Part shown: piece after piece, positions 285 through 59,038 of the stretch
Position numbering within the stretch: position 1 is the first letter of the stretch
Layout of the letters: each line of letters begins with the position of its first letter
From: Methanospirillum sp.
Lineage (GTDB): Archaea > Halobacteriota > Methanomicrobia > Methanomicrobiales > Methanospirillaceae
Direction: 5' to 3'
Assembly (NCBI GenBank): GCA_012728895.1
Contig: JAAYEG010000065.1
Coordinates: 7,538 to 71,537 of the forward strand
DNA length: 64,000 nucleotides
Translations under genes and position numbers: made by a program
The notes under the pieces: generated by a model
What the model saw: only the letters and a program-made list of their open reading frames with translations
Databases searched by the model: none
Told to the model about the DNA's origin: nothing

Positions 285-713
285 ATGGGACAGGGCAAAT
301 TCGCAGCCAGAAAACTCAAGCGGGACTCGAACCGGTTCCGCTGGAGCGACGTGAACTACGCACGCCGCCTCCTCGGACTCGACATCAAGAGCGACCCGCT
401 CGAGGGCGCGCCCCAGGCGCGCGGCATCGTGCTCGAGAAGGTGGGCGTCGAGGCCAAGCAGCCGAACTCGGCCATCCGCAAGTGCGTCCGGGTGCAGCTG
501 ATCAAGAACGGACGCCAGGTCACCGCGTTCGCCGCGGGCGACGGCGCGATCAACTTCATCGACGAGCACGACGAGGTCGTCGTCGAGGGGATCGGGGGCC
601 GGCTCGGCCGTTCGATGGGCGACATCCCCGGCGTCCGGTTCGTCGTGACGCAGGTCAACAACGTCTCGCTCCACGAGATGGTGATCGGCCGAAAAGAGAA
701 GCCGAGGCGCTGA
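285..713 (+). CDS. rps12: 30S ribosomal protein S12 (uS12)
   Basis: 142-aa ORF containing [19 protein letters not shown] and [10 protein letters not shown], characteristic of uS12. It is the first gene of an S12-S7-EF2 cluster. Confidence 0.95.
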
Positions 714-715
714 TC

Positions 716-1327
716 ATGGAGACCGTGGAAGCAGCAAACCCCGGCGAGGAAGAGACCCGGCCCGGCACGCCGCAGCTCCTCTTCAACCTCTACGATGTCG
801 GCGAGGTCGAGATCGAGGACATGGCACTCGATCGCTACGTGAACCTCCATTCGATGATCGTGCCGCACTCCTGCGGCAAGCTCACCGGCGGCGACTTCCA
901 GAAGAGCCAGATGCTGATCGTCGAGCGGCTGATCAACCGGCTGATGCAGACCGAGCACAACACGGGCAAGAAGCAGCTGGCCATCCGGATCGTCAAGGAC
1001 GCGTTCGCGATCATCGCGCAGAAGACCGACAAGAACCCCGTCCAGGTGCTGGTCGAGGCCGTCGCGAACGCGGGCCCCCGCGAGGAGACCGTCCGGCTCA
1101 AGTACGGCGGGATCAACGTCCCCAAGTCCGTCGACACCGCGCCCCAGCGGCGGGTCGACTCGGCGCTCAAGTTCATCACCGAGGGCACCCAGAAGAACTC
1201 CCGGGGCAAGAAGTCGGTCGCCGCGGCGCTCGCCGACGAGCTGATCGCGGCGTCGAAGGGCGACATGAGGGCCTACTCGGTCGCGAAGAAGGAAGAGCGC
1301 GAGCGGATTGCGAAGTCCGCCCGCTAG
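716..1327 (+). CDS. rps7: 30S ribosomal protein S7 (uS7)
   Basis: In-frame ATG at 716, 2 nt after the rps12 stop (METVEAAN...). Contains [15 protein letters not shown] and [22 protein letters not shown]. The 482 start in the ORF track is an Arg-rich extension overlapping rps12. Confidence 0.9.
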
Positions 1328-1355
1328 ATACCGATACCCCTTTTCCGGAACCACT

Positions 1356-3548
1356 ATGGCACGCGGTAAGAAGATGGTGGACCGTGTCACGGAGCTCATG
1401 GACAAGCCTGAGCAGATCCGTAACATCGGGATCGTTGCGCATATCGACCACGGCAAGACCACGCTCTCGGACAACCTGCTCGCCGGCGCGGGCATGATCT
1501 CGGAGGAGCTGGCGGGCCGGCAGCTCTTCATGGACTCCGACGAGGAGGAGCAGGCCCGCGGGATCACGATCGACGCCTCGAACGTCTCGATGGTCCACGA
1601 GTACGAGGGGCGGGAGTACCTGATCAACATGATCGACACCCCCGGCCACGTCGACTTCGGCGGGGACGTCACCCGCGCCATGCGCGCGGTGGACGGCGCC
1701 GTGGTGGTCGTGGACGCGGTCGAGGGGACGATGCCCCAGACCGAGACGGTGCTCCGGCAGGCCCTCAAGGAGGGGGTCGTGCCCGTTCTCTTCGTCAACA
1801 AGGTCGACCGGCTGATCAACGAGCTCAAGGTGGACGAGCAGGAGATGCAGATCCGGCTCGGGCGCGTGATCGACAAGGTCAACAAGCTGATCAGGGGCAT
1901 GAACGAGGAGGCCTACAAGGCGGGCTGGCGGCTCGACGCGGCCCAGGGCACGGTCGCCTTCGGCTCGGCGCTCTACAACTGGGCCGTCTCGGCCCCGTTC
2001 ATGAAGACCTCGGGGGTCTCGTTCAAGGAGGTCTACGAGAAGTGCCGCGCGGGCGAGATGAAGGAGCTCGCGAAACGCTCGCCGCTCTCGTCGGTCCTGC
2101 TCGACATGGTCGTGCGCCACCTCCCGGACCCGTTCGACGCGCAGAAGCGCCGGATCGGCGTGATCTGGCACGGCGACCGGGAGTCGCCCGAGGGGAAGGC
2201 CATGTACGCCTGCGACCCGAACGGCCCGATCTCGATGATGGTGACGGACATCTCGTTCGACCCGCACGCGGGCGAGGTGGCGACGGGCCGGCTCTTCTCG
2301 GGCACGATCCGCCGCGGCGCCGAGCTCTACGTGATGGGCGCGGCCCAGCGGGCGAACCGGATCCAGCAGGCGGGTATCTTCATGGGCCCCACGCGGATCG
2401 AGGTCGAGTCCCTGCCGGCCGGGAACATCGCCGCGGTGACGGGGCTCAAGGACGCGATCGTCGGGTCGACGGTGACTTCCTTACGCGAGATGACCCCGTT
2501 CGAGTCCCTGAAGCACTACTCCGAGCCGGTCATGACGGTGGCCGTCGAGGCCAAGAACATGAAGGACCTGCCGAAGCTCGTCGAGGTGCTGCGGCAGGTG
2601 GCGAAAGAGGACCCGACCCTCGCGGTCACGATCAACGAGGAGACCGGCGAGCACCTGATCGCCGGGATGGGCGAGCTCCACCTCGAGATCATCACGGGCC
2701 GGATCAAGCGCGACAAGGGGGTCGAGATCGTGACCTCGCCCCCGATCGTGGTCTACCGCGAGACGCCGGCCGGGAAGGCCACGGCGGTCGAGGGGAAGTC
2801 GCCGAACCGGCACAACCGGTTCTATATCGACATCGAGCCCCTGGACGACGAGATCGTCCGGATGATCCGGGAGGGCGAGGTCTCGATGAACCAGCCCGCG
2901 CTCGAGCGGCGCGACATCCTGGTCGCGGCAGGGATGGACAAGGACGAGGCCAAGTCGGTGAAAGACATCTACGGCACGAACATGTTCATCGACATGACCA
3001 AGGGGATCCAGTACCTGAACGAGACGATGGAGCTGATCCTCGAGGGCGTGCACGAGGCGCTCGCCGGCGGGCCGCTCGCCGACGAGAAGGTCCAGAACAC
3101 GAAGATGCGGCTCGTGGACGTCAAGCTCCACGAGGACGCGATCCACCGCGGGCCGGCGCAGGTGATCCCGGCCTCGCGCTCGGCGGTCAAGGCGGGGCTG
3201 CTGATCGCGGACGACTCGCTCCTCGAGCCGATGCAGAAGATCTCGATCACGGTCCCGACCGACCAGATGGGCGCGGCGACGTCGCAGGTCCAGGGCCGGC
3301 GCGGGCAGGTCTTCGACATCACCTCCGAGGGCGACACGGTCACGGTCGTGGGCAAGGCCCCCGTCGCCGAGCTCTTCGGGTTCGCCGGCGACATCCGCTC
3401 GGCTACCGAGGGGCGCGCGATGTGGTCGACCGAGTTCGCCGGGTTCGAGATCGTGCCGTCGTCGATGATCAAGGACGTCGTGATGGCCATCCGGAAGCGG
3501 AAGGGGCTCAAGGAGCAGCTCCCGCGGCCCGAGGACTACCTCGCCTGA
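1356..3548 (+). CDS. fusA: translation elongation factor 2 (aEF-2)
   Basis: [11 protein letters not shown]... start; GTPase motifs [17 protein letters not shown] and NKVDR; [11 protein letters not shown] (diphthamide-His loop region); 730 aa. Confidence 0.95.
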
Positions 3549-55913: not shown

Positions 55914-57255
55914 GATGCCTCCGTTGTTGCGTGATTGGCCGACATCCAGCATAAAGCATGACGATCGCCGTCGTGGGACGGGCCGGGAACGAAGGGTGTG
56001 TACGACCCGGTCCGGGACGAGAACACCGCGAAGGCAGGATCCTGTCCGGGCCAGGACCCGGATAGGGGACTTCCGGGGTGCCGGTATTCTTCGACGGAGA
56101 GGTCCCCCGGGGCCGGACGCGGGGCCGTTCATGCACGGCTCCACCCCGCTCACGGCCACGTGCGCCGCCGGCAGGGAGGGGGCTGGTTGACGAGCTTCCC
56201 GGGAGGGTTCGAGGTTCTCGCGCCGGCGCTGGGCGTCTCCTTCACCTCGCTGCGCGGGATCGACCGGATGGCCGGCGGGTCCAGGAACCCGGTGCAGGTC
56301 CAGCTCCCGGCGAGGCTCGCGGGAGGGCGTGACCGGCTCGACGGGCGCCCATCCCCGGCGGGCTGAAGGGTTCCGGGATCCAGACGCTCCTCGCCGATGC
56401 CCAGGACCCCGCGTCCGGCCCCCCGCACCACTCCACCGACGCGAGCCACGACGGGTCGGCGTACCCGGGGATGGGCGCCCGGAACCCGGTGGAGTCGCCG
56501 GAGCGGGATCCACGGCCGTTCGGGGAGGCACCGGGGGCCGACCTCAGCCAGTGCGTCCTCCACCCGGAGGACATCCGGGCCGGGCGGGCCCGGAGCGGCG
56601 AGGGAGATACCCGGTGGACGGAACTCACCAGGGAGGAGAGCCCGGTGCAGCGAGCAGATCATCGAGGCGCTCGCAGACCCGCCCGTTCGCGGGATGCGGC
56701 CGGCCTCGATGGCGATGGGGATCAGGGGCTGAAACCGGGCCGGGGGTGGCTCCCCGAACAGCGGGGCCCGCCGCCGGGACCATCGAGACGACGCAGGCTG
56801 TCCCCTAGGCCGTTATCCGATGCCCCCTCGCCATGCGTTCGAACGGATGCGATCCGCCTTCTCGGAAGTGCCGGACCGGATCCGGGCGCGTGGCTCCGGG
56901 CCGGTCCGCGCAGCCGGCCACGAGGACGGTCCGGGGCAGGATGGAGGCCGGGGCGGCCCCCGTGCCGAGAGAGGCAGGTGTGCATCGCGGGGATAGCATG
57001 AACACCCCGGTGACGGAGGGCGGAGCGGGGGGTCGCAGGTGGAGAGCGGATCGGCCCGGCGGAGGTACTGCTCCTCCCGGCCGCGGCAGGCCCCGTAGAG
57101 GTTCACGACGCCCCGGCAGGGGTGCGCGGCCTTCGTGAAGGTGGTTCCGGGTCACCGCAGGGGGAGGACTGCATCGATGATCGCTCCTCCTGCTCCTCCC
57201 GCCCGATCCCCCGCGTGTTCAAAAGACTGAGAAATCTTCGGTGACCCGGGGGGCA

Positions 57256-58128
57256 TCAGTCACAGACGGAAAACGAGGGGGAGGACGCGGAACCCCGTCG
57301 TTCTGGTTTCGTTGCGCTGAGCTGGATGCTCGCGATGAACTCCCCGAGGCCGGCCACCAGCCCGGGCGGCAGGTTCATATCGGTCATGATTGCCCTCGCC
57401 GTCGGGTCGTTTGTCATGCAGTCGAGCGTCATCGGGCTCTCGCCGAGGATCCGCACCTCGTGGAACCCGGCGTCCCTCACCAGGTCGAGGTAGTCCTGCC
57501 GGCCGATCGCCCCCGAGAGGCACCCGACGTACGCCCCCACCGACTGCCTGACCCCGTCGGGGAGCGGCCGGAGCAGGACCGTGTCCGAGATCATCAGCCG
57601 CCCGCCGGGTTTGAGGACGCGAAAGGCCTCGCGGAAGACCCGGGCCTTGTCCGGCGCAAGGTTGATGACGCAGTTCGAGACGATCACGTCGACGGACCCG
57701 TCGGCCACCGGCAGGTGCTCGATCTCGCCGAGCCGGAACTCGACGTTGGCGTACCCCCCGGCCCTCGCGTTCTCGCGGGCCCTCGAGAGCATCTCGGCCG
57801 TCATGTCCACGCCGATCACGCGCCCATCGGGTCCGACGCGGCCGGCGGCGAGGAAGCAGTCGAAGCCGGCGCCGGAGCCCAGGTCGAGCACGGTCTCGCC
57901 GGGCTGCAGGGAGGCGAGCGCGATCGGGTTGCCGCAACCGAGCCCGAGGTTGGCCCCGGCTGGGACGGCCTGCAGGTCCTCGTCCGCATAGCCGAGCCGC
58001 CGGCTGATCTCGTCTTGGACGGGGGCGCTCTCGCATCCGCAGCCGGACGGGCCGCAGCAGGAGCCCCCGCTCCGGGCGATCTCTCCGTAGCTCTTCCGCA
58101 CCATCCTTTTCAGCTCGTCGTCGGTCAT
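57256..58128 (-). CDS. arsM: arsenite S-adenosylmethionine methyltransferase
   Basis: [13 protein letters not shown]...GCGCE Cys-rich N-terminus. [14 protein letters not shown] motif. [16 protein letters not shown]. Confidence 0.85.
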
Positions 58129-58415
58129 GTCGACACCTCGTCGAGCAGGGCATCCTTCACCAGCGGTCCCACCACGCTCTTCACCGGGTCGTCGAGCCGG
58201 TCGGCCCTGACCAGCATCAGGCAGCAGGTCTCGCCGCCCGTCTCCCAGCCGATCACCGCGAGCTTGCTGCCGGGGCTGATCCCCGCCCGCACCCGAAGGT
58301 CCTTCGGGAGGAGAAGCTGCCCGCGCTCGTCGATCGTCACGATCGCCTCGAGCGAGCAGCGGCCGGCCGGACCGGGAGCTGAACAGCAGGGTTCGTCCGT
58401 TCTGACCATGTCCAT
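58125..58415 (-). CDS. AbrB/SpoVT-type small DNA-binding-domain protein with two vicinal Cys pairs
   Basis: [27 protein letters not shown] (looped-hinge-helix pattern). CC occurs at residues 10-11 and 64-65. The stop overlaps the arsM start (ATGA). Confidence 0.75.
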
Positions 58416-58445
58416 TCAACTGTACTATAGGCAGGGCTGGATGAT

Positions 58446-58479
58446 GAATTTTCTTGCAATGCGCAATTCTCTGAAAATT
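58446..58479. promoter_or_regulatory. dyad symmetry AATTTTC-N19-GAAAATT in the divergent promoter between the AbrB-like gene and the C_GCAxxG gene
   Basis: Read directly from the most AT-rich part of the 58416..58582 spacer. Confidence 0.3.
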
Positions 58480-58582
58480 ACGATCCCGATCCACCGTGAC
58501 CGCGCCATGGGCGATACCGGGGGATATCCCGATCGGGGTGTCGGTGACCGGTATAAAACCGGTGAGGCCGAACGAGAGAGGC

Positions 58583-59038
58583 ATGAGTACGGACCGTCCC
58601 GAGAGAGCCGTCGCCTGCCTCGATGCCGGGTTCTCGTGCGCCCAGGCGATCTGCCAGGTCTGCGGCCCGGAGTTCGGCCTCTCACGCGATACGGCCAGCC
58701 GGATCGCGGCGGGACTGGGCGCGGGAATGGCCAGGACCGACGATATCTGCGGCGCCGTCTCGGGCGCGGTGCTGGTCCTCGGGCTCGCGTACGGAGGCAA
58801 CCTCGAGGACGCCGTACCCGCGCGGGAACGGACCTACGCCGCTGTTCAGAAGTTCATCGCGGCCTTCACGGCGGCGCAGGGTTCCGTCTCGTGCACCGGG
58901 CTGCTCGGGTATAATCTCGGCGACCTGGACGAGTTCGCAGCGGCACGGCAGGCCGGCATCGTCAGGCGAGTCTGTCCGGCCATGGTCCGGGCCGCCTCGG
59001 AGCTCCTCGAGGAGATGCCGGGCCAGCCCGGGGAATGA
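58583..59038 (+). CDS. C_GCAxxG_C_C family redox protein
   Basis: [17 protein letters not shown]...[24 protein letters not shown]...SCTGLLG...VCPAMV. Confidence 0.75.

Follow-up and report, generated by a model that had tools for sequence, protein, structure and literature searches.

An HgcC-family protein with a predicted AbrB fold precedes arsM in Methanospirillum sp.: a candidate thiol-based regulator shared by arsenic- and mercury-methylation loci

Introduction

How is an arsenite methyltransferase gene controlled when no ArsR-type regulator lies beside it? The question is raised by a 64,000-nucleotide stretch of DNA from Methanospirillum sp. (assembly GCA_012728895.1, contig JAAYEG010000065.1, positions 7,538 to 71,537 of the forward strand), which we call the window. 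It encodes ArsM, an arsenite S-adenosylmethionine methyltransferase, immediately behind a gene for a small, cysteine-rich protein of the AbrB type. A preliminary description of the locus proposed that this small protein is a new As(III)-responsive regulator standing in for ArsR, or else an ArsD-like chaperone of the methyltransferase. We find that the protein belongs to the HgcC family, that members of this family precede either arsM or the mercury-methylation genes hgcAB in Archaea and Bacteria, and that their promoters carry a sharply defined repeat. With moderate confidence, we favour the view that HgcC, a protein with an AbrB fold, represses its own operon and would sense metal(loid)s through its conserved thiols: As(III) at this locus, and either Hg(II) or As(III) where hgcAB follows.

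The answer bears on the control of hgcAB and on why microbes methylate mercury. It also concerns the methylation of arsenic in anoxic soils, for example rice paddies, which is poorly predicted from gene presence.

Results and discussion

The window protein is an HgcC with three conserved thiols

The small open reading frame spans 96 amino acids counted from its first ATG, and its AbrB/SpoVT looped-hinge-helix segment corresponds to residues 28-52. The protein matches the NCBIfam family NF040962, "HgcAB-associated protein HgcC" (residues 20-88 on model positions 2-70), above the curated equivalog cut-off of 70 bits. It also scores just over the cut-off of 28.3 bits of the AbrB domain model TIGR01439 (scores in Table 1). 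Its sole Pfam match is to MazE_antitoxin (PF04014), at 18.1 bits and below the cut-off of 24.7. We listed Pfam and NCBIfam profiles for the window proteins up to E ≤ 0.1. Within this limit the protein showed no Pfam match to the winged-helix domain HTH_5 (PF01022), and no match in either collection to the thioredoxin-like domain of ArsD. The genome carries a single HgcC gene.

The family is therefore not new, as the preliminary description had supposed: it is already catalogued in NCBIfam and has been discussed in the literature. A gene annotated as AbrB, PrlF or MazE lies directly upstream of hgcA, mostly in Methanomicrobia, and this gene type has been proposed as an archaeal regulator of hgcAB (Zhang et al. 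2023, PMC10349881). That study treats the gene as related to toxin-antitoxin systems, without reference to cysteines or an operator. The window protein resembles the catalogued HgcC in size, AbrB core, conserved CC pair and position as first gene. However, the family name and PMC10349881 cover the hgcAB context only, whereas the window and more than half of the closest loci have arsM. The annotation of the window protein is thus corrected: it is neither an antitoxin nor the member of a new family. Our literature search retrieved no paper that ties the HgcC family to arsM, nor any on its cysteines or operator, and searching for "HgcC" as a word returned unrelated uses only. Hence, the gene family and its candidacy as a regulator at hgcAB were already known. 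What is new relative to the searchable literature is that arsM predominates as a partner, that a triad of cysteines is conserved and that the operator is shared across domains.

The window protein has cysteines at residues 10, 11, 20, 64 and 65. It was previously pointed out that two CC pairs flank the AbrB segment, and they are indeed found at residues 10-11 and 64-65. Their conservation differs. In an alignment of 85 HgcC-family sequences, C65 is invariant, and C64 and C20 each occur in at least 90% of the sequences. The C64-C65 pair is therefore a hallmark of the family. The N-terminal arm usually bears two more cysteines, as CC or CxC, which are absent from short forms; the N-terminal pair is thus found in only part of the family and is a dispensable accessory. 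Cys20, the fifth cysteine of the window protein, was not stressed in the earlier account and is the third conserved thiol of the family. The cysteine pattern is alike in members linked to arsM and in those linked to hgcAB. The Arg/Lys residues of the looped-hinge helix that would contact DNA (R31, K38 and R41) are also invariant in this alignment.

HgcC precedes two metal(loid)-methylation systems

We analysed the genetic context of hgcC in the best 80 of at least 572 loci, obtained by scanning the prokaryotes with one genome for each species. The co-occurrence with ars genes suggested for this family was borne out: arsM lies directly downstream of hgcC in 46 of the 80 loci (45 identified by tblastn, plus locus L053 at a contig end). 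In 30 others the genes directly downstream are hgcA and hgcB, and one locus, L081 from Candidatus Methanoperedens, has hgcC, arsM, hgcA and hgcB in a single unit. Overall, the gene next to hgcC is arsM or hgcA in 77 of the 80 loci. The gap between hgcC and the following gene has a median of around 13 nt, and around ten of the arsM loci show an overlap. Within the class to which the window belongs, 77 of the 151 sampled genomes have a match to NF040962 above the cut-off. These patterns suggest that HgcC works for both of the metal(loid)-methylation systems known from anaerobes. Its name is narrower than its distribution, since 46 of the 80 loci lack an hgcAB neighbour.

The two contexts do not form separate lineages. 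They are intermixed on the maximum-likelihood tree of HgcC, where the well-supported branches alone force at least 6-7 switches between them. For example, L032 (hgcAB) and L060 (arsM) are a sister pair differing in context, and L056 (arsM) is nested inside the hgcAB group of Deferrimicrobiaceae. Because of this repeated switching, the constant partner of HgcC is the promoter, not the enzyme.

Two loci have peculiar features. The HgcC of L081 has YC in place of CC at positions 64-65. In the deltaproteobacterial locus L085 (5243-5887), hgcC is followed by small open reading frames, a membrane PEMT/ICMT-like methyltransferase gene and a partial ArsM-like gene, which is possibly a third kind of methyltransferase context.

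An operator-like repeat accompanies hgcC in both domains

We compared the 120 nt preceding hgcC in 79 loci with the other 738 kb of these loci. Two to four palindromic TCWGA pentamers, separated by A/T-rich spacers of 4 nt, lie upstream of hgcC in Archaea and Bacteria; a typical array is TCTGATTTTTCTGATTTTTCAGAAAA. The exact double site TCWGA-N4-TCWGA occurs in 50 of the 79 upstream regions (67 sites, 7.07 per kb) and only twice in the background (0.0027 per kb), a roughly 2,600-fold enrichment. Shuffled upstream regions gave a mean of 0.03 loci with such a site. Successive pentamers are spaced by 9 nt in 67 cases and by 18 nt in 28 cases. When archaeal pairs are 18 nt apart, the "missing" middle unit is usually the CTTAA of TTAAATA.

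The array has a consistent relation to the core promoter. It mostly starts 26-42 nt past a TTGAC -35 box in bacterial loci, covering the -10 box and the transcription start, and in three of these loci it is found inside the spacer between the -35 and -10 boxes. The archaeal arrays adjoin the TATA box or lie to either side of it. Since hgcC is the sole gene common to these promoters, its product putatively binds the array and represses its own operon. A scan of the window's own genome (2.28 Mb, 68% G+C, 95% complete) for exact TCWGA-N4-TCWGA or TCWGA-N13-TCWGA sites revealed eight, all G+C-rich, apparently coding and on other contigs. No regulon beyond the local promoter emerged from this genome-wide scan of exact double sites.

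The window's promoter has a conserved, if degenerate, array

The spacer upstream of hgcC is the most AT-rich local DNA, as had been observed: positions 58400-58499 have 44% G+C, against 57-83% around them. Read on the minus strand, it contains TCAGA-GAAT-TGCGC-ATTG-CAAGA-AAAT-TCATCATC, i.e. one exact and two degenerate pentamers in the 9-bp register. The element TCATCATC comes 4 nt past the last pentamer and around 30 nt before the probable start of hgcC; its position and conservation suggest that it is the TATA-like box of the hgcC-arsM promoter. The start codon is probably at 58409, giving a protein of 94 amino acids as in P0004, because in the promoter alignment the ATG of the relatives (...GGTGATAGGAC-ATG or ...ACAGGTGATAGGAC-ATG) falls on the second ATG of the window's reading frame.

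The four-unit layout of the window array is kept in loci L006, L092, L093 and L095, at 66-83% protein identity. An alignment of five promoters including these four shows invariant columns within the pentamers and the TATA-like box, as well as in the GAAAAT flank and in a Shine-Dalgarno-like GGTGA. The dyad AATTTTC-N19-GAAAATT previously noted in this spacer is present, with arms at 58447-58453 and 58473-58479, 19 nt apart. It recurs as ATTTTTC-N19-GAAAATT in L006, whose protein is 66-67% identical to the window HgcC. The comparison indicates that the dyad is more than chance, because it is present at this level of divergence and the whole block is kept in the five aligned promoters.

HgcC is predicted to be an AbrB-fold homodimer

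The AlphaFold model of the window HgcC has a core (residues 21-70) with a predicted local distance difference test (pLDDT) of 83-91, and comprises a helix, a beta hairpin and a C-terminal helix. The top structural matches obtained with VIA-align are all AbrB, SpoVT, MazE or related N-domains (Z of 3.4-4.9, root mean square deviation of 2.0-2.9 Å over 47-54 residues). Foldseek gave no match against the PDB at E ≤ 0.001 for this model, whose domain is small.

The homodimer prediction scored 0.47, against 0.00 for the best control, a pass that may reflect likeness to solved AbrB-type dimers only and be no independent proof. Of the proteins solved as same-chain pairs, 20 of 30 reach the mark used for this score, against 1 of 23 among those solved as single chains. 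At least 65% of the contacts agreed between runs, and the partner pLDDT was at least 58. In the predicted dimer, beta1 (residues 22-27) pairs with beta3' (50-55) of the other chain, as in swapped-hairpin dimers, and beta4 and beta4' make a symmetric contact around residue 67. The predicted contacts place Cys20 at the root of the partner chain's mobile N-terminal arm. Folding of this arm onto the barrel to complete a three-thiolate site would plausibly couple ligand binding to release from DNA.

The solved structures of AbrB, SpoVT and MazE (PDB 1yfb, 2w1t, 2mru) match the prediction for HgcC in fold, dimer topology and the Arg/Lys residues of the looped-hinge helix. The sites recognised by AbrB are loosely defined, however, and the repeat found at HgcC loci is sharply delimited. 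To our knowledge, the known members of the AbrB, SpoVT and MazE families have no conserved set of cysteines and do not sense metals.

A model for thiol-dependent repression

We propose the following model. HgcC would be a swapped-hairpin AbrB-fold homodimer with a flexible N-terminal arm bearing cysteines. The dimer would bind the TCWGA-type array, with its 9-bp period, next to the TATA box from which its gene is transcribed. Bound there, it would repress the bicistronic hgcC-arsM transcript by occluding the core promoter. As(III), a thiophilic metal(loid), would be ligated by Cys64-Cys65, Cys20 and the N-terminal pair. The ligated protein would leave the DNA, and both ArsM and more of the regulator would be made. 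We infer that HgcC binds the TCWGA motif, that it represses and does not activate, which effector it answers to and what its cysteines do.

In this model, HgcC would work like ArsR on a different fold. An ArsR-like regulator of hgcAB is cited in PMC10349881 for Pseudodesulfovibrio mercurii ND132 (Gionfriddo et al. 2023). Like HgcC, ArsR/SmtB proteins are encoded by a co-transcribed first gene, and in bacteria they too stand before both kinds of target operon, hgcAB and ars genes. We propose the same logic for HgcC, i.e. a dimeric repressor released by thiolate-bound As(III). The difference is in the architecture: ArsR/SmtB proteins have a winged helix, whereas HgcC is predicted to be a swapped-hairpin AbrB barrel and its operator-like sequence is made of palindromic pentamers with a 9-bp period. 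The preliminary interpretation survives in part. Its regulator in the place of ArsR gains strong support from comparison, through the linkage to arsM, the conserved Cys64-Cys65 and Cys20, and the operator-like repeat over the promoter in both domains. The novelty of the family, a universal N-terminal CC and a partnership with the divergent C_GCAxxG_C_C redox protein find no support.

Several observations weigh against a repressor of this kind. The same genome has a second arsM-like gene that seems to have lost its hgcC, which indicates that the regulator is dispensable in the window's lineage. The array in the window holds only one exact pentamer, and such degeneracy may weaken the control. 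The conserved promoter motif could be bound by another factor. The tight translational coupling of hgcC and arsM also fits a stoichiometric partner of the enzyme. In the structural model, the two CC pairs are at opposite ends of the beta4-beta4' ribbon, so that a common site would need the mobile N-terminal arm. Finally, for every member of the family DNA binding, metal binding and induction are inferred.

Alternative explanations

HgcC might act mainly as an ArsD-like chaperone or buffer, with thiols that pass As(III) or Hg(II) to the methylating enzyme and with DNA binding secondary or absent. ArsD also has vicinal cysteines and a third Cys and is also encoded inside an arsenic operon. Translational coupling would yield near-stoichiometric amounts of HgcC and ArsM, and there are candidate acceptor cysteine pairs in the N-terminus of ArsM and the C-terminus of HgcB. 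However, ArsD has a thioredoxin-like fold, serves the ArsA ATPase and has no sequence match with HgcC. Moreover, near-identical HgcC proteins have switched at least 6-7 times between the unrelated ArsM and HgcAB, which is hard to reconcile with specific docking, while R31, K38 and R41 are invariant and the repeat travels with the gene in both domains. The chaperone put forward in the preliminary description is thus less favoured, the enzymes being interchangeable and the DNA motif constant, and we regard it as unlikely. It is important to highlight that the two roles could coexist in HgcC: ArsD is a weak repressor and a chaperone at once. Alternatively, HgcC could be a DNA-binding regulator that senses thiol redox state, sulfide or polysulfide, or an Fe-S cluster, instead of the metal(loid) that is methylated. 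Five cysteines in 96 residues of a protein from a strict anaerobe would suit this function, as would the thiol-redox genes beside several loci (C_GCAxxG_C_C in the window, a CMD/AhpD-like gene in L092, DsbD_2 in L095). Yet these neighbours are not conserved, and the only consistent followers of hgcC, in 77 of 80 loci, are the two metal(loid)-methylating systems. We find this explanation rather improbable.

The degeneracy of the array raises the possibility that the module is decaying in this genome, with control lost and arsM either constitutive or silent. A single exact pentamer is left, a small cysteine-rich open reading frame downstream is a relic, and hgcC seems to have been deleted in front of the second arsM-like gene. 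Against this, the hgcC reading frame is intact with all the residues invariant in the family, and the array is kept in sequence and register at 66-83% protein identity, which implies continued constraint. We consider such decay improbable and keep it as a caveat. The possibility that HgcC is a type II antitoxin, of the PrlF or MazE kind, is suggested by the weak Pfam match to MazE (18 bits) and by databases that name some relatives "antitoxin PrlF". But no toxin gene follows, either in the window or in the 77 of 80 loci where arsM or hgcA comes next, and the cysteine pattern is foreign to antitoxins. We deem this very hard to believe; the antitoxin reading had already been rejected from the gene context, with arsM downstream and the divergent C_GCAxxG_C_C gene upstream.

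Among these explanations we retain the autoregulating thiol-dependent repressor. More tentatively, HgcC might found a class of metalloregulators that has not been described, consisting of AbrB-fold, thiolate-sensing repressors with a TCWGA-repeat operator, present in Archaea and Bacteria and controlling ArsM and HgcAB. If so, the class would link the native role and regulation of mercury methylation, long a matter of debate, to the response to arsenic and mercury stress. One small regulator family stands before arsM or hgcAB in hundreds of species of anaerobes, and a single protein with its DNA motif and its three cysteines can serve as a handle. If these cysteines sense As(III) or Hg(II), HgcC would add a new fold to the metalloregulator families and provide a marker of inducible versus constitutive methylation potential in metagenomes.

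Genome context, paralogues and relics

We found no hgcAB in the window's genome: the six-frame translation of the 95%-complete assembly has neither the HgcA motif N[VI]WC[AGS][AGS]GK nor the HgcB motif CxECxAC. Four matches to PF03599 (CdhD), on contigs C49 and C56, are without the HgcA motif and are taken to be acetyl-CoA decarbonylase/synthase subunits. The gene acr3 was not found in this genome either. There is no ArsR-type helix-turn-helix gene on the contig, as the earlier account held for the locus, and the six PF01022 matches of the genome sit on other contigs. Three traits set the window apart: its genome has no hgcAB, its operator is conserved although degenerate, and accessory parts have decayed.

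The second arsM-like gene (G000, contig C77, around 640-1455, plus strand) scores 270 bits against a cut-off of 263 and has no hgcC before it. Its product is without the N-terminal cysteine cluster and one catalytic cysteine. Its flanks match those of "type B" hgcC-arsM loci in genomes of the same genus, suggesting that hgcC and the operator seem to have been deleted there. The genus has two types of HgcC-ArsM paralogues (loci L097-L100, in genomes G114, G137 and G149), and G149 has both. In the 94-amino-acid type, which the window resembles, an N-terminal CC goes with a degenerate operator. The 78-amino-acid type has no N-terminal CC and a near-perfect operator, TCAGA-N4-TCTGA-N4-TCTGA.

Accessory decay is visible downstream of arsM. 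A small open reading frame with the pattern CxxC...CxxC...CxC is intact after arsM in L006 and L093-L096, where it gives weak matches to C4 zinc ribbons. The window has a relic of it, which begins with MQSSPCG, has a frameshift near 57150 and has lost cysteines from both knuckles. The copy in L100, from the same genus, is half-decayed, with the second knuckle lost. The relic explains the "protein-like relic" in the apparently non-coding 1.3-kb stretch downstream of arsM.

Locus layout and neighbouring genes

Table 1. Features of the hgcC-arsM locus, in window coordinates.
Feature	Position	Strand	Basis
hgcC-family gene, cysteine-rich protein with predicted AbrB fold	58125..58415	-	NF040962 101.3 bits; TIGR01439 29.0 bits
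arsM, arsenite S-adenosylmethionine methyltransferase, 290 amino acids	57256..58128	-	NF008823 355 bits (cut-off 263)
ATGA overlap of hgcC stop and arsM start (translational coupling)	58125..58128	-	read from sequence
Operator-like pentamer array, 9-bp period: TCAGA 58474..58470, TGCGC 58465..58461, CAAGA 58456..58452	58452..58474	-	degenerate TCWGA-N4-TCWGA
Dyad AATTTTC-N19-GAAAATT; the A/T flanks of the outer pentamers form its arms	58447..58479		sequence; recurs in L006
Putative TATA-like box TCATCATC of the hgcC-arsM promoter (TTATCATC in relatives)	58440..58447	-	position and conservation
Relic of the 53-55-amino-acid CxxC...CxxC...CxC small open reading frame	57029..57174	-	tblastn, 61-66% identity over 41 residues, 57151..57029
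C_GCAxxG_C_C thiol-redox-type protein, 151 amino acids, divergent	58583..59038	+	PF09719 96 bits
TATAAAA box of the C_GCAxxG_C_C gene	58552-58558	+	sequence

The layout in Table 1 agrees with the overlap between the two genes first reported, in which the stop codon TGA (58127..58125) lies on the start codon ATG (58128..58126). The same 4-nt overlap is found in all five close metagenomic relatives (L092-L096). The best solved relative of the window ArsM is an arsenite methyltransferase (5evj, E of 2e-36), with which its GCGNP, SNCVINL and GCLSGA cysteines align; in addition, it bears an N-terminal cysteine cluster.

The divergent C_GCAxxG_C_C gene is present as originally described. Its TATAAAA box precedes the ATG by around 25 nt, a spacing suggestive of a leaderless transcript, and the longer GTG-initiated reading frame from 58496 is probably not used. 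As a conserved partner of the module the gene was rejected, tblastn finding it in none and phmmer in one of the 80 loci. NCBIfam has a pair, DVU_1555/DVU_1556, composed of a C_GCAxxG_C_C protein and a methyltransferase, which both window proteins match below cut-off. The thiol-redox genes beside hgcC-arsM vary, being CMD/AhpD-like in L092 (867-1280), DsbD_2 in L095 (4953-5677) and C_GCAxxG_C_C in L052 (2705-3103), and the reductant partners of ArsM may change between relatives. NCBIfam also lists ArsM-AhpD and ArsM-DUF2284 fusion selenoproteins.

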